64,000 nt of DNA from a virus. Taxonomy: Duplodnaviria; Caudoviricetes. Location of the stretch: the IMG/VR virus record IMGVR_UViG_3300029705_000042. One strand, 5' to 3'. Position numbers and translations under genes: made by a program. The notes below the pieces were generated by a model. The model was not told the origin of the DNA. It saw only the letters and a list, made by a program, of their open reading frames with translations, and ran no database searches. Shown piece after piece: positions 24,412-47,181 of the stretch (the stretch's first letter is position 1; every line of letters begins with the position of its first letter).

Positions 24412-24498
24412 TGGTGCTGGAGAAGGGATTTGAACCCTCACGCTTGTAAAAGCACAAGATTTTAAGTCTCGGATGTCTGCCAATTCCATCACTCCAGC
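24412..24498 (-). tRNA. tRNA-Leu (anticodon TAA)
   Basis: Acceptor GCTGGAG/CTCCAGC, anticodon loop CTTAAAA, long variable arm, GGGTTCAAATCCC T-arm, encoded CCA. Confidence 0.92.
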
Positions 24499-36216: not shown

Positions 36217-36552
36217 TCAAGCTTCGTTGTGTTTGTCAATGATTTTCTGCAAGTCTGGCGTGATATTTTCCAAGACAGTATAGCCGTTTGCTTCTAACGC
36301 TTCTTCCATACCTTCTTTAATAAAATACTGTGTAACATCTTCAAATTGAATATCTTCCACGAAATTGTTTGCACCTACCCAGCCTTGTACATCATTTTCG
36401 TCGGGATTTACATAATCCCAACCAGCAACAAGCTCAAGATTAATTAAAATATATTCCGTATTGCCGTATGTTTCAAATTCTCCTACCTTGTAAACAAGAT
36501 TCCCAGTATCATTGACAACATAGAATTTATGATTTTCAAGATAATGTTTCAT
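36217..36552 (-). CDS. Acidic hypothetical protein
   Basis: 111-aa ORF. Confidence 0.7.
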   Translation of the reverse strand: MKHYLENHKFYVVNDTGNLVYKVGEFETYGNTEYILINLELVAGWDYVNPDENDVQGWVGANNFVEDIQFEDVTQYFIKEGMEEALEANGYTVLENITPDLQKIIDKHNEA

Positions 36553-36587
36553 AATTTATTCCTTCTCTCTTTTTATTTTTGTGGCTT

Positions 36588-36655
36588 CCCACTACACCCA
36601 GCGGAATTTTCCGCTGAATGTTTCGGCTGGTTGCCGTCCAGCCTCATCAGGTAGG
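36588..36655 (-). ncRNA. Type I hammerhead ribozyme (GUA site)
   Basis: CCTAC-CTGATGA-[GGCTGG..CCAGCC]-GAAA-[CATTCAGCGG..CCGCTGGGTG]-TA|GTGGG. Confidence 0.9.
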
Positions 36656-37198
36656 TCAATGTGCATACTCATAAACTGCTTCTCCGTTTGAGAAAATTCC
36701 AAGGCAATGCAATTCTCTCCATCCGTATTCGGGAGCAACCTTTTCCATCCAACGATTGATTTTGCGAATTTCCGCATCATACTTGCGAATTGCTTGACTT
36801 CTACACATATCATAGTAGTATCTGCAATCCTCATTGTCTAGTTCGTGCGGATTTTCCTTTTCTTCCACGAAAAGCTGAATACCTGTATAATATCCGCTTT
36901 TGAAAACGATTTTGTGGAATGTTAGAGTATCGTTCAATTCTTCCATCTTGTCTTTAAATCCGTCATAACCATTGATAATGTCATCATAGAATGTTTCATT
37001 CCATAAATCCATTGTTTCATTATAGGATTTTTCCAGAATGTGTTTTTTCCATTCGTCAGAAACAGCGACTTCATATTCAGGATAATAATACTCATCATAC
37101 TGAAATTCTTCCGCTTCATATTCTTCCAAACTGATAGGCTCAAAGGCTTGAATGTAAAGGCTAAAATTTTTCTGGGTATAAAAGTTTGGTGTACTCAT
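36656..37198 (-). CDS. Acidic hypothetical protein
   Basis: Likely start MSTPNFY at 37198; the upstream part of the track ORF is ribozyme sequence. Confidence 0.7.
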   Translation of the reverse strand: MSTPNFYTQKNFSLYIQAFEPISLEEYEAEEFQYDEYYYPEYEVAVSDEWKKHILEKSYNETMDLWNETFYDDIINGYDGFKDKMEELNDTLTFHKIVFKSGYYTGIQLFVEEKENPHELDNEDCRYYYDMCRSQAIRKYDAEIRKINRWMEKVAPEYGWRELHCLGIFSNGEAVYEYAH

Positions 37199-37233
37199 AA
37201 TATACCATCCTTCCTTTTCTCTTTTTAGTGATT

Positions 37234-37299
37234 TCTCACGACAAGAGGAAATTTTCCTCTTGTTTCGGACGGTCATCATCCGTCCATCATCAGGTGAGA
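37234..37299 (-). ncRNA. Type I hammerhead ribozyme (GUC site)
   Basis: TCTCAC-CTGATGA-T-[GGACGG..CCGTCC]-GAAA-[CAAGAGGAA..TTCCTCTTG]-TC|GTGAGA. Confidence 0.92.
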
Positions 37300-37302
37300 T
37301 TT

Positions 37303-37644
37303 TCAATAAATATCAACCGAAAAATCCGTTTCATTGTCACCATCGAAAAGCTCTTCATATCCTGCTTTGTTGTATTCTGCGGAAATAATAATCCAGTTGA
37401 TTTCTTCCGTATAGACAATTTCTCCAAACTGTTCCAGATATTCTTTGATACTTTCCGCATCCTTCGGTCTACAAGTGACATATACATCGTTTCCGCTGTC
37501 ATTTTCCACCTTGTAGAACATATCAGGATATTCCCTTGCATTATTCCATATATGCAAGAATGACAACGCATATTTCTGTACACCACCTTCAAGACGGACG
37601 GTGATTCGGATTGCTTTTTCTTTTTCATAGAACAAATTAATCAT
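37303..37644 (-). CDS. Hypothetical protein, paralog of 23949-24278
   Basis: See 23949. Confidence 0.7.
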   Translation of the reverse strand: MINLFYEKEKAIRITVRLEGGVQKYALSFLHIWNNAREYPDMFYKVENDSGNDVYVTCRPKDAESIKEYLEQFGEIVYTEEINWIIISAEYNKAGYEELFDGDNETDFSVDIY

Positions 37645-37680
37645 GATTTTTTCCTTTTCTTTTTTAAATTTTTGTAGTTT

Positions 37681-37739
37681 CCTACGACACGGATTTCTCC
37701 GTGTTTCGACAAGTAACTATCTTGTCATCATCAGGTAGG
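37681..37739 (-). ncRNA. Type I hammerhead ribozyme (GUC site)
   Basis: CCTAC-CTGATGA-T-[GACAAG..CTTGTC]-GAAA-[CACGG..CCGTG]-TC|GTAGG. Confidence 0.92.
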
Positions 37740-37741
37740 TT

Positions 37742-38113
37742 TCAAATTTCACAGCAAGTTAAATTCCAAGCGTTTCCAAGCTCGTAATATAATCCGTATT
37801 TTCCAAGAATTTTGGAAAATTCCATCTCAAATTTTGCTCCCCAGTATCCATTTAATACTTCGTATAAACTTCCTTCAAAGCTCATACTCAAAATATTTGG
37901 CTCTGCGACATACTCAAAATAATCCTTCGGGTTTGCCTCATACTCAAAATATTTATTTTGGTTATAGCAAAATTCTGTTCCGTCCTTGCTATTTGTGCTC
38001 CAGCATTTTCCATTAAAATAAATGTGTACATCAATCCACAATTCATTTTTAATCAAAAATGCGTGAATTTCCTTTGCTAACTGTTCAATTTTTTTATGCT
38101 GTTTTGCATTCAT
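37742..38113 (-). CDS. Hypothetical protein
   Basis: Likely start MNAKQHK at 38113, downstream of a hammerhead. Confidence 0.7.
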   Translation of the reverse strand: MNAKQHKKIEQLAKEIHAFLIKNELWIDVHIYFNGKCWSTNSKDGTEFCYNQNKYFEYEANPKDYFEYVAEPNILSMSFEGSLYEVLNGYWGAKFEMEFSKILGKYGLYYELGNAWNLTCCEI

Positions 38114-38146
38114 TTTTGACAGCTCCCTTTTCGCTTTTATGTGGTT

Positions 38147-38202
38147 TTCCACGACGCTCCAAGCGTTTCGGCAAGTGACCAACTTGCCATCGTCAGGTGG
38201 AA
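38147..38202 (-). ncRNA. Type I hammerhead ribozyme (GUC site)
   Basis: TTCCAC-CTGACGA-T-[GGCAAG..CTTGCC]-GAAA-[CGC..GCG]-TC|GTGGAA. Confidence 0.9.
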
Positions 38203-38203
38203 T

Positions 38204-38320
38204 TTACTTTTGTCCGTCAAATTTACAAATACCTTCTTTGACAGCTTCTTTTGCGATTTCTCCCTTGCCAGTAGTCAGGAAGATAATCCAATTCAAGATT
38301 GATTTTAGTACTTTTTTCAT
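38204..38320 (-). CDS. 38-aa micropeptide
   Basis: MKKVLKSILNWIIFLTTGKGEIAKEAVKEGICKFDGQK; ATGA-coupled to the upstream gene. Confidence 0.6.
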   Translation of the reverse strand: MKKVLKSILNWIIFLTTGKGEIAKEAVKEGICKFDGQK

Positions 38321-38523
38321 ACGATTTTTCCTCCGCATTTAATAATACTTGCAATTATAACCATTGTTTCGGATTCTCCGAAGTGCATTCTATAACGCAA
38401 CATGTTATATATTTCTTCAAATGATATGGGATTACCAGATAATGTATTTCCGAAGTATGCAGTATTATCTTTGTTTGCGTTAATAATCTGTTCACATTCT
38501 TTTTTCGTCCAATGATTTTTCAT
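38317..38523 (-). CDS. Hypothetical protein
   Basis: 68-aa ORF directly downstream of a pistol ribozyme. Confidence 0.65.
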   Translation of the reverse strand: MKNHWTKKECEQIINANKDNTAYFGNTLSGNPISFEEIYNMLRYRMHFGESETMVIIASIIKCGGKIV

Positions 38524-38557
38524 ATGATTTTTTCCTTTTCTTTTTATTCAGGTTTTC

Positions 38558-38627
38558 ACCTACCCCAGCGGATAAAACCGCTGGACGCTCACGGCTTAAA
38601 GGTCTGTTTATACTTGCCGTGACAAGT
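38558..38627 (-). ncRNA. Pistol ribozyme
   Basis: P1 ACTTG/CAAGT whose loop pairs with GCCGTG, ATAAACAG linker, P2 ACCT/AGGT, TTAA-GCCGTG-AGCG, P3 TCCAGCGG/CCGCTGGG, G|U site. Confidence 0.88.
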
Positions 38628-38629
38628 TT

Positions 38630-38986
38630 TTAAAGCATCGTGTAAAGCTCTTGCAGGTCTGCATAAAATACAGGTTTGTTTTCGGCAAGGTCTTGCATCA
38701 TGACAGCTTCTTTTGCTCCCGTCATACGCTTTATATTGTGCTTGCGTTTGTATGCTTCTCTAAAGTCTGCAAATTCAGCATCAAGCAAAGCATAAACGCA
38801 TCTTTTCATGACGGATTGATAACAGTATGATTCCCAAGTACGATTATAGTACTGAACTTTTGCCTCGCCTATCAAACTACCGTTTTTATACAGTTTTGTT
38901 TCATGTACAAAACCAGAACGATTTGAACGATAGGAATTGACAAATTCATACTCATTATTGTTTATAATCTTTGTTGTAGTACTCAT
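38630..38986 (-). CDS. Hypothetical protein
   Basis: Likely start MSTTTK at 38986, downstream of a hammerhead. Confidence 0.7.
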   Translation of the reverse strand: MSTTTKIINNNEYEFVNSYRSNRSGFVHETKLYKNGSLIGEAKVQYYNRTWESYCYQSVMKRCVYALLDAEFADFREAYKRKHNIKRMTGAKEAVMMQDLAENKPVFYADLQELYTML

Positions 38987-39010
38987 AATATAGCACCTTC
39001 CTTTTCTTTT

Positions 39011-39072
39011 AATCTGGACGCCTTGACTTGCAAGGCGTTTCGTCTTAATTTTCAAAGACTCATCAGCAGATT
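39011..39072 (-). ncRNA. Type I hammerhead ribozyme (GUC site)
   Basis: AATCTG-CTGATGA-[GTCTT..AAGAC]-GAAA-[CGCCTTG..CAAGGCG]-TC|CAGATT. Confidence 0.93.
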
Positions 39073-39073
39073 T

Positions 39074-39325
39074 TTATATTACGCTTAATTCTTTTAATGC
39101 TTTTTTGCCTAGCGTATAAATATGCGTATCATCACAATTATATTTTTCATACCATTCGCACATAGTATTTGAGCCTATAAAAGCACGGAGACAGTCAAAA
39201 GTTAAACGCTTTTCAAAGTCGTTATATTGACCGCTTGCCTTTAGTTTTGGAGCGTATTCTTTGATTTTATCAATATGCTTTTCAAATTGATTTTTTACAA
39301 ATTCAAATTCATTTTGAAGCTTCAT
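39074..39325 (-). CDS. Hypothetical protein
   Basis: 83-aa ORF between two ribozymes. Confidence 0.7.
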   Translation of the reverse strand: MKLQNEFEFVKNQFEKHIDKIKEYAPKLKASGQYNDFEKRLTFDCLRAFIGSNTMCEWYEKYNCDDTHIYTLGKKALKELSVI

Positions 39326-39360
39326 GACTTATACCTTCCTTTTCTTTTTATTGAGTTTTC

Positions 39361-39431
39361 GCTCATCCCAGCCTTTATTGAGGCTGGACGCTCCCAGCTT
39401 AAGAGCCTATTTTTAATCGCTGGGACGATTA
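39361..39431 (-). ncRNA. Pistol ribozyme
   Basis: P1 TAATCG/CGATTA whose loop pairs with GCTGGG, AAAATAG linker, P2 GCTC/GAGC, TTAA-GCTGGG-AGCG, P3 TCCAGCC/GGCTGGG, A|U site. Confidence 0.85.
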
Positions 39432-39434
39432 TTT

Positions 39435-39704
39435 TTAACAAGTAATTAAATAACTATTTTTTGTAGTTACAATACGCCAGCCGTTTTTTACTTGCCAAGA
39501 TACTGTATATTGATAATCGTTATAACTGCAAATATGAAAGTTTTTGCCGTGTTCTGCTGAACACTTAAAAATTAAATCAATGAAAATATGATTTTCTAAA
39601 GGCGTATAACTTGAATAAATGTCATCAATCAAAAAGCCTTTGTCTTGTTTGGCTAGTTTAATCATTGCCTGACCTTTATGCGTTTTGCCGTCGATAACTT
39701 TCAT
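39435..39704 (-). CDS. Hypothetical protein
   Basis: 89-aa ORF between two ribozymes. Confidence 0.7.
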   Translation of the reverse strand: MKVIDGKTHKGQAMIKLAKQDKGFLIDDIYSSYTPLENHIFIDLIFKCSAEHGKNFHICSYNDYQYTVSWQVKNGWRIVTTKNSYLITC

Positions 39705-39740
39705 TTTTGACAGCTCCCTTTTCTCTTTTTATAGGATTTT

Positions 39741-39796
39741 ATCCCGACGCCCGTGCTGGGCGTTTCGTCGTAATTTTCAACGACTCATCAGGGGAT
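39741..39796 (-). ncRNA. Type I hammerhead ribozyme (GUC site)
   Basis: ATCCC-CTGATGA-[GTCGT..ACGAC]-GAAA-[CGCCC..GGGCG]-TC|GGGAT. Confidence 0.93.
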
Positions 39797-39807
39797 TTTA
39801 CGGGGAA

Positions 39808-40161
39808 TTATATAAAATACATTTCCCCGTTAATCTCAAGAGCAACAGCATCCTGATTCAATTCTGTTTTTACTGTCTCGCAAAAATCAATTACTTTTTC
39901 GATATTGTTTTGTAAATCTGTATCGCTACAATATGCAAATACCATTGTTGAACGTTCTTTTACTAAACCAGCAGAAGGGCTTACCCAGTATCCCAGAGCC
40001 TCGCAAGATGTAGCACCGCCGAAAGACTCGGAAAGTAAAACAGCGCAAGCATCAATATATTTTTTTGTGTTTGCTGTCTGGTTTATATCTACTGTTGACG
40101 GGATATAAACTGTAATTTTGCTAGACAATTTAAACATATTTTTTAATTTTGCGTTCATCAT
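39808..40161 (-). CDS. Hypothetical protein (DUF3574-like)
   Basis: FGGAT...GYWV...LVKE...ELNQDAVALE pattern; first gene of the early transcript. Confidence 0.6.
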   Translation of the reverse strand: MMNAKLKNMFKLSSKITVYIPSTVDINQTANTKKYIDACAVLLSESFGGATSCEALGYWVSPSAGLVKERSTMVFAYCSDTDLQNNIEKVIDFCETVKTELNQDAVALEINGEMYFI

Positions 40162-43469: not shown

Positions 43470-46361
43470 ATGCTTGATGTTCAAGTACAGATTCTAAGTG
43501 TAGATACGGGCGATTTTTATAGTAATCGTGAAGCAATGCTGCATTGGTTCAATCATAAACTTAGAATAGAAAGAAATGAATTAAAGAAAAAAGAAAGCGA
43601 TATTGTCAACAAGTTATCTGAATACGGAATTAATAAAAATGATTTGATATCAATTTTAAATTATGAATTTGGTTTTGAGTCACTGGATGATAGCTCTGTC
43701 GTGTCTGAGCTTGGCGAAGAATATTGTAAAACTGTAGAGTTAATTAAGCTCAAAAATAAAAAAATTAAAGAGTCAAAAAATAAGCTGCTGAAATTGTTGG
43801 CAAATAAAGTAGAGTCTAATGCTGTTACAAATGGAATACATCATATTAGAGAATTAAGAAATCTTAATCCATCGGGAGATAAATGCAATATATATAAATA
43901 TGCAAAAGAACCGTTCAATGATAAAAAGATTATTTCGGTGTTTGATTCTGCTTTTACAAGAATGATAGGTGCAAAACAAGATGAACTAAACGAAGACTTT
44001 ATGGTTGTACAAGTTTTCTACTTTGATATTATAAAAGACTTAATTTATCACGGATTTACTTACAAAGGTGAAAAATATATTTACTTTACCTCTTCTGCTG
44101 GACAAATTAGAACCAAAAAGACTGTTTTTATAAAAGAATCTGTTTGGAAAAAATACGAAAAAACAATTATGTGCGGATTAACAATCGACTCTATTAATGC
44201 TAAGGGTGGTAATAATCCTAATAAACATTTGGCTTATATGGCTTTGACTAATTCCGCTACTGATGTTTGGGAAGAATTTGATATTGATAAAACGATAGTA
44301 ATTGACGATTTTGAAACAGATGTATATGGCACATACGACTTAGTAGACGATACTGATTACTCTATTAAAAGGGTGTCTGATTATGTTCCTATTACCCATA
44401 CCGATGGCGCTGGAATGATGCTTCCTTGTGCTTTTGGTAAAGAACAAAAAAATCAAATGGTGCGATTACCTTGGATAAAAGGACTTTTAGGAGTGTTTGA
44501 TTTTAAGAAATTTATAGAGGTTAATAATTGCTCTTCTAAAATTACGGATATATACGGCAAGACATGGGATATCATAGAAGATGATATTCAAGTAATTTTT
44601 ACAAAGAGTCAAACTAAAATGTGGAAATATTACGACTCTTGGGAACAGTATAAAGAATATTATAAATATTATAAGTGCACTGCTGGATATACTAACAAAG
44701 AAGAAGATAAAATTAAAGACGCTACTATTAATTATCAAATGCTGCAGACTCTTACCGAGGTAAACGATAATGAGATAGAGCAAATTATTAATAGGTCAAA
44801 TAACAAGTTGAAAAATTTATGCTCTTCTATAGAGTCTATGAAATCTGCTTTTGGTGTAACACCAGATACTTGCGAAGGTAATATGACATATTTACAGAAA
44901 GCCATTAAACTTTATCCTGATTTAATGAATGATGAATGGCTAAAAATTATTTTAAGACAGATTAAAGATAGTATGGTCAAAAACTACAAGGCGGGAAGTT
45001 TATCTATTAATGGCAAGTATACATTTTTGTTGCCAGATTTCTATGCGGCTTGTGAGTATTGGTTTATGAATAATAAAAATCCCAACGGCTTATTAAATGA
45101 CAAAGAAGTTTTTTGTTGGTTATTTAGAAAGGCAAAAGAACTTGACTGTTTAAGAAGCCCGCATTTATACAAAGAACACGCCATTAGAGATAATATGGCT
45201 TGGAATGGCAACAAAGAGAATCAACAGCGAATTAGAGAGTGGTTTAATACTGATGCGGTTTATACAAGCTGCAAAGATTTAATTAGTAAAATTTTACAGT
45301 TTGATGTTGATGGCGATAAATCTCTTGTGGTAGCTGATGAAAATATTATTAATGTTGCCAAAAATAGTATGAATAACATTGTTCCTCTTTATTACAATAT
45401 GAGAAAGGCATCTCCTGTTCAATTAAACAATCAAACAATTTATGATGGTCTTAATGCAGCGTTTATCGGTGGTAACATTGGAATATATAGCAACAATATA
45501 TCTAAAATTTGGAATAGCGATATCTTTGTCAATGGCTCTGTAGAAGAAAGACAAAACGCTGTTGATTTAATTAAATTGTTGTGTATGGAAAATAATTTTG
45601 TAATTGACTTTGCCAAAACTTTATATAAGCCAGAGAGACCCGATTATATTCACGATAAAATTACAAGTTTTACAAACAAAAAACTCCCCCACTTCTTTAC
45701 ATACGCAAAAGACAAAACAATTGACCAAGTTGAAAATATTAATAATAGTTTGGTAAATAAATTAGATTCTAAAATAATTAATCCAAGAATTAATTCTCGC
45801 AGCATTGGATTAAAACAAATTGACTATACCAAATTAGTAAGCAATCCAGATATTGAATGTCGTGTTGTATTTAATAAAAATGGGAAAATTAACGAAGAAT
45901 TATCAGACCCTATGATTGTTAAATATTATGAACTTAATCAGCAATATCATTTTAAGGTTAATATGGAATGCGCCGAATTAACAAGGGGCGACTTGTTAAG
46001 TAATACTCAATACAAACAAGATTTATTTTTTAAAAGAATTGCTAATGAAATTCGCACTGAGCTTTCTCAGTTTGGATATAGTGAATCTGAGATTGTTGAT
46101 ATTTTGGTCAAGTTTTTGTATTATGTTAAACCAAGTAAACATAAAAGTGTTCTTTGGTTTTGCTATGGAAAACAGATTTTTGAGAACATAGAGAAAAATA
46201 TTAAGTCAAAAACTAAGATTATTCAGTGTGTTGATTGCGGCAAATGGATTGAGATTGGCATAAAAGATACAAAGACTTGTCGGTGTGAAGATTGTTCAAA
46301 AGAACATAAGAGAGAATTAACTCGCTTAAGAGTTCAAAAACATAGAACGAAGTCTATGTAA
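43470..46361 (+). CDS. yonO: YonO-like single-subunit two-barrel RNA polymerase
   Basis: Catalytic DxDGD (QFDVDGDKSLV), plus THTDGAGM, RLPWIKGLL and LRSPHL; position before HU and the head genes as in SPbeta. Confidence 0.85.
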   Translation: MLDVQVQILSVDTGDFYSNREAMLHWFNHKLRIERNELKKKESDIVNKLSEYGINKNDLISILNYEFGFESLDDSSVVSELGEEYCKTVELIKLKNKKIKESKNKLLKLLANKVESNAVTNGIHHIRELRNLNPSGDKCNIYKYAKEPFNDKKIISVFDSAFTRMIGAKQDELNEDFMVVQVFYFDIIKDLIYHGFTYKGEKYIYFTSSAGQIRTKKTVFIKESVWKKYEKTIMCGLTIDSINAKGGNNPNKHLAYMALTNSATDVWEEFDIDKTIVIDDFETDVYGTYDLVDDTDYSIKRVSDYVPITHTDGAGMMLPCAFGKEQKNQMVRLPWIKGLLGVFDFKKFIEVNNCSSKITDIYGKTWDIIEDDIQVIFTKSQTKMWKYYDSWEQYKEYYKYYKCTAGYTNKEEDKIKDATINYQMLQTLTEVNDNEIEQIINRSNNKLKNLCSSIESMKSAFGVTPDTCEGNMTYLQKAIKLYPDLMNDEWLKIILRQIKDSMVKNYKAGSLSINGKYTFLLPDFYAACEYWFMNNKNPNGLLNDKEVFCWLFRKAKELDCLRSPHLYKEHAIRDNMAWNGNKENQQRIREWFNTDAVYTSCKDLISKILQFDVDGDKSLVVADENIINVAKNSMNNIVPLYYNMRKASPVQLNNQTIYDGLNAAFIGGNIGIYSNNISKIWNSDIFVNGSVEERQNAVDLIKLLCMENNFVIDFAKTLYKPERPDYIHDKITSFTNKKLPHFFTYAKDKTIDQVENINNSLVNKLDSKIINPRINSRSIGLKQIDYTKLVSNPDIECRVVFNKNGKINEELSDPMIVKYYELNQQYHFKVNMECAELTRGDLLSNTQYKQDLFFKRIANEIRTELSQFGYSESEIVDILVKFLYYVKPSKHKSVLWFCYGKQIFENIEKNIKSKTKIIQCVDCGKWIEIGIKDTKTCRCEDCSKEHKRELTRLRVQKHRTKSM

Positions 46362-47105: not shown

Positions 47106-47181
47106 GCTTCGATATCTCAATTGGCAGAGGACTTGATTTGTAATCAAGATGTTGTGGGTTCAATTCCCTCTCGAAGCTCCA
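47106..47181 (+). tRNA. tRNA-Thr (anticodon TGT)
   Basis: Acceptor GCTTCGA/TCGAAGC, anticodon arm CTTGA-TTTGTAA-TCAAG, T-arm with one T-T mismatch, encoded CCA. Confidence 0.85.

Follow-up and report, generated by a model that had tools for sequence, protein, structure and literature searches.

Self-cleaving hammerhead ribozymes of type I have been described from phages and prophages by Perreault et al. 2011 (PMC3088659). These ribozymes share the core, the three stems and the open stem I with those discussed here, occupy intergenic positions with several copies flanking single small genes, and carry, just 3' of stem I, a short tail whose pairing partner is loop II. This pseudoknot is required for fast cleavage (PMC3088659). 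In the part of that paper available to us it figures as a tertiary brace only, and a hairpin between the tail and the 3' strand of stem I is absent from the description. The closest engineered analogue of such a hairpin is RiboJ, an insulator in which the sTRSV hammerhead is followed by an appended 23-nt hairpin upstream of a ribosome binding site (RBS). The cleaved RiboJ transcript starts with this hairpin, which is thought to raise mRNA stability and to expose the RBS, but the element is a separate add-on that does not derive from the closing strand of the ribozyme (PMC6206723). Secondary structure at the 5' end is also known to stabilize mRNA. Stabilizer stem-loops on primary transcripts hinder 5'-end-dependent decay through a base-paired 5' terminus and must lie near the end, and the 5'-OH end made by the glmS ribozyme is an entry site for RNase J1, which degrades this product (PMC3997798). 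Finally, Mahen et al. 2010 (PMC2817708) placed short complementary segments next to a hairpin ribozyme as engineered test inserts; these compete with an essential ribozyme helix, and competitor helices downstream block ribozyme assembly in vivo. Our limited literature search returned no description of a natural product hairpin made from the closing strand of a ribozyme, although an earlier one may exist.

The window analysed here, a 64,000-nucleotide stretch of viral DNA (Caudoviricetes), contains six type I hammerheads and two pistols on its minus strand, between small genes, as called by Infernal and a descriptor of our own (Table 1). Both pistols contain P1, P2, P3 and the conserved linker of RF02679, cover model positions 1-68 of 68 and exceed the gathering score of 34.5 bits. 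Their cut falls in the G-U linker 5' of the P2 3' strand, which is A-U in pistol-2. None of the six hammerheads reaches the gathering score of an Rfam hammerhead model, and five give no match at E values up to 5. HH-B stays below threshold with the RAGATH-1 hammerhead (39.3 vs 56.3 bits) and Hammerhead_3 (32.6 vs 48.5 bits). For this reason the hammerhead calls rest on our descriptor, which asks for a complete core, three stems and a cut after UH, and the copies are predicted ribozymes. All six have the core CUGANGA ... GAAA, the A15.1-U16.1 pair and cleavage after UH. Stem I is open and 5-6 bp long, while stems II (5-7 bp) and III (4-12 bp) are closed by loops. Helix sequences differ from copy to copy. 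One additional U is inserted between A9 and stem II in HH-C, HH-D and HH-E, a trait shared by many of the sampled phage hammerheads. HH-A and HH-B have the same loop II, which also occurs in crAss-like phage hammerheads. A search of viral contigs for relatives of two operon proteins gave none for one protein and seven loci for the other, 0/7 with a hammerhead or pistol. A general hammerhead pattern matched 120 loci across genome contigs, one of which parsed as a type I hammerhead.

Table 1. Predicted ribozymes and product hairpins in the window (hairpin energies and pairing probabilities are predictions for the free 3' product).
Feature	Position	Strand	Details
HH-A, type I hammerhead	39741..39796	(-)	stem I 5' strand 39796-39792, core from 39791; cut before 39745; descriptor
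HH-A product hairpin	39733..39745	(-)	5 bp, 3-nt loop, from nt 1; -3.2 kcal/mol; P(4 nt paired) 0.88
Pistol-2 ribozyme	39361..39430	(-)	cut before 39365; RF02679, 60.2 bits
Pistol-2 product hairpin	39352..39365	(-)	4 bp, 6-nt loop; -2.6 kcal/mol; P paired 0.93
HH-B, type I hammerhead	39011..39072	(-)	cut before 39016; sole copy without product hairpin
Pistol-1 ribozyme	38558..38627	(-)	cut before 38562; RF02679, 69.2 bits
Pistol-1 product hairpin	38549..38562	(-)	4 Watson-Crick bp 38561-38550; -4.8 kcal/mol; P paired 0.95
HH-C, type I hammerhead	38147..38202	(-)	cut before 38152; loop II pseudoknot strand 38181-38178
HH-C product hairpin	38141..38152	(-)	4 bp, 4-nt loop; 3' arm 38144-38141 overlaps loop II partner 38145-38142
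HH-D, type I hammerhead	37681..37739	(-)	cut before 37685; loop II pseudoknot strand 37719-37715
HH-D product hairpin	37674..37685	(-)	4 bp, GAAA loop; 3' arm overlaps loop II partner 37679-37675
HH-E, type I hammerhead	37234..37299	(-)	cut before 37239; loop II pseudoknot strand 37278-37275
HH-E product hairpin	37228..37239	(-)	4 bp, GAAA loop; 3' arm overlaps loop II partner 37232-37229
HH-F, type I hammerhead	36588..36655	(-)	cut before 36592; loop II partner 3 bp only (36635-36633)
HH-F product hairpin	36581..36592	(-)	4 bp, 4-nt loop; 3' arm overlaps loop II partner 36585-36583

A first-pass annotation of this DNA had pointed to mini-hairpins with covarying stems at the start of most 3' products, and had identified their 5' arm as the strand that forms stem I or P2. 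Our analysis bears this out. All seven hairpins are present on the minus strand where that annotation had placed them, 0-1 nt from the predicted cut in 7/8 copies, and in every one the 5' arm is the 3' strand of stem I or P2. Six different arm pairs occur among the seven, with pairing kept while the sequence differs. The helices are 4-5 bp long and start at product nucleotide 1 in six cases and at nucleotide 2 in pistol-1, where an outer U-G pair is optional. This offset of 0 or 1 places them within the few nucleotides of the RNA 5' end expected of a 5'-terminal stem-loop. In pistol-2, the 5' arm consists of the cleavage-site U and three nucleotides of the P2 3' strand. Predicted hairpin energies in the free product range from -2.6 to -5.9 kcal/mol, and the first four nucleotides are predicted to be paired with probabilities of 0.88-1.0 for the seven copies and 0.02 for HH-B. 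Shuffled or swapped tails give a strict 4-bp Watson-Crick hairpin at the cut in about 3-7% of sites, far below the observed seven of eight. Unlike that of RiboJ, the hairpin in the window is natural and covarying, takes its 5' arm from the stem I or P2 strand, and excludes the ribozyme fold.

The first-pass annotation missed a second partner of the tail. In four copies, HH-C to HH-F, 3 nt of the 3' arm also belong to the tail segment that serves as loop II's partner in the known pseudoknot of hammerheads. This pairing comprises 4 bp in HH-C, 5 bp in HH-D and 4 bp in HH-E, but only 3 bp in HH-F, against a criterion of at least 4 covarying bp for this pseudoknot; HH-A and HH-B have none. Loop II and the tail covary across the sampled phage hammerhead families. 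Since the same nucleotides serve as 3' arm and as loop II partner, the tail of these four copies has two mutually exclusive partners and belongs to the active ribozyme before it could act as a competitor. Competition of this kind recalls the segments of Mahen et al. 2010 (PMC2817708), except that here the competitor occurs naturally, is conserved and, in four copies, also belongs to the active fold.

The same arrangement recurs in other phages. Among 84 other pseudoknot-type phage hammerheads from unrelated contexts, the best hairpin starts at product nucleotide 1 in 57 and at offsets 1-3 in 12. Strict 4-bp Watson-Crick hairpins from nucleotide 1 occur in 35/82 with loops of up to 8 nt and in 47/82 with loops of up to 18 nt, where tail shuffles and swapped tails predict 2-6 of 82. 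Counted by offset, hairpin starts are most frequent at 0 and 1 (38 and 25 of 88) and fall to 0-5 further downstream. In an anchored alignment, 71.3% of cells pair, compared to 63.5% after shuffling and 33-58% after sliding; 0/500 shuffles reach the observed value. The corresponding covariation score is 0.366 vs 0.230. Significance based on shuffles is overstated, because many of the sampled sequences are related to one another. The arms covary with stem I, and in 25/77 cases the 3' arm differs from the 5' strand of stem I and is still complementary to the 3' strand, which led us to reject a target-site duplication or a relic direct repeat as the origin of the arm. Because the arrangement recurs with compensating changes in so many other phage hammerheads, the hairpin has probably been selected for in type I hammerheads of phages. 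It is also dispensable, since 22 of 88 pseudoknot-type hammerheads have the pseudoknot only and HH-B has no hairpin.

How might such an element work? On balance we favour a reading in which the tail swaps partners, so that a post-cleavage hairpin would lock the cut and shield the new 5' end. Before cleavage, the 3' strand of stem I (or P2) would close the ribozyme, and in HH-C to HH-F the tail would pair with loop II in the pseudoknot that joins stems I and II. After cleavage, short helices alone would retain the 3' product. Upon its release, the first 4-5 nucleotides and the tail could fold into a hairpin whose helix begins right at the newly made 5'-OH. By taking away both strands needed for re-docking, this hairpin would make the cut irreversible. 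The mRNA would then begin with a paired 5' terminus, followed by an A-rich leader and a Shine-Dalgarno site, and its 5'-end-dependent decay should be slower as a result, be it by an RNase J-type 5' exonuclease as in Bacillota, the probable host group of this phage, or by 5'-end sensing elsewhere. The hairpin would thus be a predicted stabilizer that, in contrast to the stem-loops on primary transcripts (PMC3997798), forms only after release of the ribozyme strand. Our analysis establishes the sequences, the two alternative pairings with their covariation across many phages, and the near-equal predicted energies of the two folds; the succession of steps, and any influence on release, ligation or half-life, are inferred. 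The roles proposed in the first-pass annotation, namely product release, a block to re-ligation and capping of the 5'-OH against RNase J-type decay, are plausible proposals. Against the favoured reading, a stem I of 5-6 bp would dissociate readily unaided.

An unlikely rival explanation is that the 3' arm is nothing but the known loop II partner, that its complementarity to the 3' strand of stem I is incidental, and that the hairpin is irrelevant. The 3-nt overlap in HH-C to HH-F speaks for this account, the pseudoknot has an established role in cleavage (PMC3088659), and it is also the more constant element: about 76/88 pseudoknot-type hammerheads have at least 4 bp of it, compared to 63/88 with the hairpin. 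The account does not explain HH-A and the two pistols, whose tails contain no partner for loop II. In some families the hairpin loop encloses the loop II partner, and there the outer arm tracks stem I and not loop II; 14 hammerheads have such a separate outer arm flanking the loop II partner and covarying with stem I. The joint change of loop II, stem I and tail in the overlapped class is also left unexplained, as is the usual pairing of product nucleotide 1 with the base that follows the loop II partner.

Alternatively, the hairpin could act before cleavage as an attenuator that competes with stem I or P2 and sets the fraction or timing of cleavage, with polycistronic and processed transcripts coexisting. 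During transcription the competitor strand follows its target by only 4-8 nt, and the hairpin can therefore form in the precursor, which also counts against the favoured reading. Nearest-neighbour folding without the pseudoknot indeed predicts it in the minimum-energy fold of 7/8 precursors, with the ribozyme and hairpin folds within about 2.3 kcal/mol of each other, and downstream competitor helices are known to be inhibitory in vivo (PMC2817708). In the overlapped class, however, the pseudoknot sequesters the competitor strand, and its duplex adds a predicted -2.2 to -5.6 kcal/mol in favour of the active fold. Moreover, competition does not require a helix flush with the cut, yet nucleotide 1 is strongly preferred (57 vs 12). 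We therefore regard attenuation as improbable.

Each of the seven hairpins is followed by an A-rich leader and a strong Shine-Dalgarno site, the latter 30-41 nt from the cut. This suggests a third possibility, to which we give little credence: that the hairpin serves translation or protein binding as part of the leader, either as a natural RBS-exposing insulator of the RiboJ kind (PMC6206723) or as the target of a protein from phage or host, with the overlap with the ribozyme strand as a by-product. Enrichment does track the leader type. In a constant-loop-II subclass without tail pseudoknot, the pairing probability is 0.62 vs 0.36 for shuffled sequences when a Shine-Dalgarno-like leader, our weak proxy for host taxonomy, is present, and 0.35 vs 0.36 when it is not. 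The unpaired probability of the Shine-Dalgarno window in the products is predicted at 0.28-1.0, so the RBS that had been described as unstructured is only partly so. Compared to the precursors these values show no consistent change, and for this reason we dropped the idea that cleavage unmasks the RBS. A sequence-specific protein site is unlikely because the arm sequences vary freely.

The first-pass annotation had also proposed a design shared across two ribozyme classes. In that form, this part is not supported. In 58 other viral pistols the hairpin is not enriched (pairing probability 0.35 vs 0.37 after shuffling), and strict hairpins occur in 3/60 viral pistols against 3.4 expected. A product hairpin that reuses the P2 strand is a feature of the copies in the window and not of the pistol class (RF02679). 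The sharing between hammerhead and pistol is local to this phage, and its two pistols are exceptions. The two pistol cases by themselves are only modestly improbable, and the leaders after the hairpins resemble one another, which would suit duplicated modules, but a functionless pattern, due to chance or to one leader module copied within this phage, is disfavoured and very hard to credit given that six different arm pairs each fit their own ribozyme strand, that dozens of unrelated viral contigs have the hairpin, in clear excess over the shuffled and swapped-tail controls, and that complementarity rather than identity is conserved.

Extending the favoured reading of a post-cleavage hairpin beyond this locus, we tentatively suggest that phages of Shine-Dalgarno hosts may carry a conserved "cleave, then cap" module. 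A tail of 4-6 nt would activate the hammerhead via loop II and, after the cut, pair with the released stem I strand, which would disable re-docking and re-ligation and cap the 5'-OH. RiboJ would then have a natural counterpart that executes itself, and in this phage the idea may have been carried over to pistols. The finding bears on two open questions: what purpose intergenic self-cleaving ribozymes serve in phages and bacteria, and how mRNAs with a 5'-OH avoid the degradation that the glmS product undergoes. That the tail of the known pseudoknot has a second partner matters for hammerhead models and for the interpretation of kinetics. A conserved hairpin that is formable only once the ribozyme strand is freed provides a concrete element to mutate, and it may supply compact ribozyme insulators of natural design for Gram-positive hosts. 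The hairpin would couple cleavage with both irreversibility and a protected new 5' end.

The ribozymes lie between small genes without Pfam matches, in an operon on the minus strand (see table). Both pistols are matched by Infernal over their full length and above the gathering score. The six type I hammerheads (HH-A to HH-F) were located by a descriptor search for the conserved core and three stems. Since the Rfam hammerhead models catch HH-B alone, below threshold, and do not match HH-A or HH-C to HH-F, the hammerhead assignment depends on an intact conserved core and on the stems, whose sequences vary from copy to copy. In HH-C, HH-D and HH-E, core A9 and stem II are separated by one additional U (38189, 37727 and 37286, minus strand), an insertion that is common among sampled phage hammerheads too. 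A sub-threshold twister-P1-like match directly upstream of the array's first gene would cleave close to its own 5' end, so that its product would retain the entire ribozyme fold.

Ribozymes and other features of the window (product nt 1, first nucleotide after the cut)
Feature	Strand	Position	Product nt 1	Basis
HH-A	-	core start 39791	39745	descriptor search
pistol-2	-	39430-39361	39365	Infernal, full-length, 60.2 bits (gathering score 34.5)
HH-B	-	core start 39066	39016	descriptor search
pistol-1	-	38627-38558	38562	Infernal, full-length, 69.2 bits (gathering score 34.5)
HH-C	-	core start 38196	38152	descriptor search
HH-D	-	core start 37734	37685	descriptor search
HH-E	-	core start 37293	37239	descriptor search
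HH-F	-	core start 36650	36592	descriptor search
Twister-P1-like match	-	40244-40190		28.5 bits, E 0.014, sub-threshold
963-aa ORF	+	43470-46361		
tRNA gene, long variable arm	-	24415-24498		Rfam, 50.9 bits
tRNA gene	+	47106-47178		Rfam, 63.9 bits

Seven of the eight 3' products open with a small hairpin, at the coordinates listed by the first-pass annotation, and the 5' arm is always supplied by the 3' strand of stem I (hammerheads) or P2 (pistols). Their arms read GUGG/CCAC (in two copies), GUGA/UCAC, GUAG/CUAC, AGGU/ACCU, UGAG/CUCA and GGGAU/AUCCU. In the free products these hairpins have predicted energies of -2.6 to -5.9 kcal/mol, with pairing probabilities of 0.88-1.0 for the first four nucleotides. 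HH-B is the copy without a hairpin (pairing probability 0.02). The 3' arm of HH-A can alternatively pair with the Shine-Dalgarno sequence GGGA of the next gene (39733-39745 and 39711-39718, minus strand), which repeats the first nucleotides of the product. For this Shine-Dalgarno window the predicted unpaired probability is 0.18 in the precursor and 0.47 in the product, a rise that hints at cleavage-activated translation of this particular gene.

For comparison, viral contigs were fetched by three patterns (hammerhead, pistol, and the loop II of HH-A and HH-B), and the descriptors used on the window were applied to parse all their type I hammerheads and pistols. The main set comprises 82-88 unique hammerheads, with a subclass of constant loop II left out. 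Of 82 hammerheads, 35 (loop of up to 8 nt) or 47 (up to 18 nt) have a strict 4-bp Watson-Crick hairpin that begins precisely at product nt 1, versus 2.2 and 5.7 expected from shuffled tails and 2.6 and 4.4 from tails grafted between ribozymes that differ at two or more of the first five nucleotides; these counts overstate independence because many of the hammerheads are related. Hairpin starts are most frequent at offsets 0 (38) and 1 (25), over a background of 0-5, and the best hairpin begins at product nt 1 in 57 of 84 hammerheads. When all 88 tails are aligned without gaps on a common anchor, a single geometry (4 bp and a 4-nt loop) yields 71.3% paired cells, compared to 63.5% after shuffling (0/500 shuffles reached the observed value) and 33-58% after sliding; the covariation score is 0.366 versus 0.230, and sequence kinship inflates the independence of this score and of the pairing figures alike. 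Even so, the sampled hammerheads contain about two dozen distinct arm pairs. We can reject the idea that the arm is a relic direct repeat, because 25 of 77 arms, including those of HH-F and HH-A, differ from the 5' strand of stem I by changes that preserve pairing with the 3' strand.

The first-pass annotation missed that the 3' arm in HH-C to HH-F is also complementary to loop II, with the loop II/tail pairs UGGU/ACCA (HH-C), UAGUU/AACUA (HH-D), UGAU/AUCA (HH-E) and GGC/GCC (HH-F). Such pseudoknots, which join loop II to the tail past stem I, are an established tertiary brace; they occur in about 40% of hammerheads and are required for fast cleavage (PMC3088659). The hairpin could then be nothing more than the partner of loop II, as the overlap in HH-C to HH-F, where the two elements share three nucleotides, would suggest. 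Against this reading, several families enclose the loop II partner in the hairpin loop, and a distinct outer arm comes after it (GUAGC-GUCCU-GCUAC, or GUGGG and CCCAC separated by a loop of 12-16 nt). Covariation links the inner segment to loop II (GUCCU to GUCUC as AGGAC changes to GAGAC) and the outer arm to stem I (GCAGC/GCUGU, AUAGC/GCUAU). Among 88 hammerheads, the loop II partner overlaps the 3' arm in 34, lies within the hairpin loop in 14, and coexists with a hairpin in some other arrangement in 6; 22 have a pseudoknot without a hairpin, 9 a hairpin without a pseudoknot, and 3 neither. Since the sampled families separate the two pairings, these sequence patterns make both the loop II-tail pairing and the stem I-tail hairpin appear to be under selection. 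In HH-C to HH-F, pseudoknot and hairpin draw on the same nucleotides and exclude each other.

HH-A and HH-B share their constant loop II with crAss-like phages, and this subclass lacks the tail pseudoknot. Enrichment of the hairpin is weaker here (12/77 versus 4.3 +/- 2.0) and is carried by Shine-Dalgarno-like leaders alone (P paired 0.62 versus 0.36 shuffled); subclass leaders without such a site show no enrichment (0.35 versus 0.36). The stem II and loop II core of HH-A and HH-B (near 39800 and 39037-39076, respectively) matches sites in crAss-like phages of animal-faecal origin (NC_055902, NC_055903, NC_055904) at about 95% identity across 40 nt; these phages have A-rich leaders with neither a Shine-Dalgarno site nor a product hairpin. 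HH-A is immediately preceded by a hairpin (about 39800-39830, minus strand) whose U-rich loop could base-pair with the A-run of loop II. This hairpin is similar to an additional one in RAGATH-1-type hammerheads and may take the place of the tail pseudoknot in HH-A. Pistols from the sampled viral contigs and the window show no class-wide signal: 3/60 carry the strict hairpin versus 3.4 expected, P paired is 0.35 versus 0.37, and two of the three hairpin-bearing pistols are the window's own. The proposed design common to two ribozyme classes thus holds only inside this phage.

Nearest-neighbour calculations place the ribozyme and hairpin folds of the six hammerhead precursors within about 2.3 kcal/mol of each other. 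Calculated without a pseudoknot term, the minimum-energy fold is the hairpin in 7/8 precursors; the loop II duplex is predicted to contribute -2.2 to -5.6 kcal/mol toward the active fold in HH-C to HH-F. We infer that the hairpin would form mainly after cleavage, since the pseudoknot sequesters the competitor strand and cleavage removes the intramolecular link. Some attenuation of cleavage by the hairpin is also conceivable, because the competitor strand follows its target in the transcript by only 4-8 nt, and competing helices located downstream can prevent ribozymes from assembling in vivo (PMC2817708).

The ribozymes, their placement between phage genes and the pseudoknot are already known (PMC3088659, PMC6765202). 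Neither a natural, covarying hairpin built on the stem I strand nor a double role for the pseudoknot tail turned up within our incomplete coverage of the full-text literature. The engineered insulator RiboJ combines a hammerhead with a downstream hairpin, and the hairpin left at the terminus is believed to make the mRNA more stable (PMC6206723). In contrast to the hairpins of the window, which re-use a strand of stem I or P2, the RiboJ hairpin is independent of the ribozyme helices.

The 963-aa ORF neighbouring the array has no Pfam match. Its nearest protein relatives come from SPbeta-like Bacillus phages and from Clostridium and Enterocloster phages; identity to hypothetical proteins encoded by Clostridium phage D-1873 and by SPbeta-like Bacillus phages is 44-45%. 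These relatives, together with strong Shine-Dalgarno sites in the leaders after the ribozymes, indicate that the host is probably a member of Bacillota. Past the hairpins (36552-39745, minus strand), the leaders have a common A-rich module that closes with a Shine-Dalgarno site of the AAGGAA or AAGGGAG type, lying 30-41 nt from the cut, which suggests module copying or convergent selection. Unmasking of the ribosome-binding site on cleavage is unsupported, as predicted Shine-Dalgarno accessibility shows no consistent shift.

The first product nucleotides of a type I hammerhead or pistol are by necessity the closing strand of the ribozyme. Any flush 5' hairpin must therefore re-use this strand, which accounts both for its competition with the ribozyme stem and for the strongly preferred start at nt 1. 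We have high confidence in the structural claim for the hairpins. In Bacillota, RNase J1 degrades the 5'-OH product of the glmS ribozyme. Secondary structure at the 5' end stabilises mRNAs more generally, as enzymes that depend on this end require single-stranded termini (PMC3997798). We lean slightly toward a functional reading in which the same hairpin would lock the products apart and cap the 5' end of the product, two effects that are mutually compatible.
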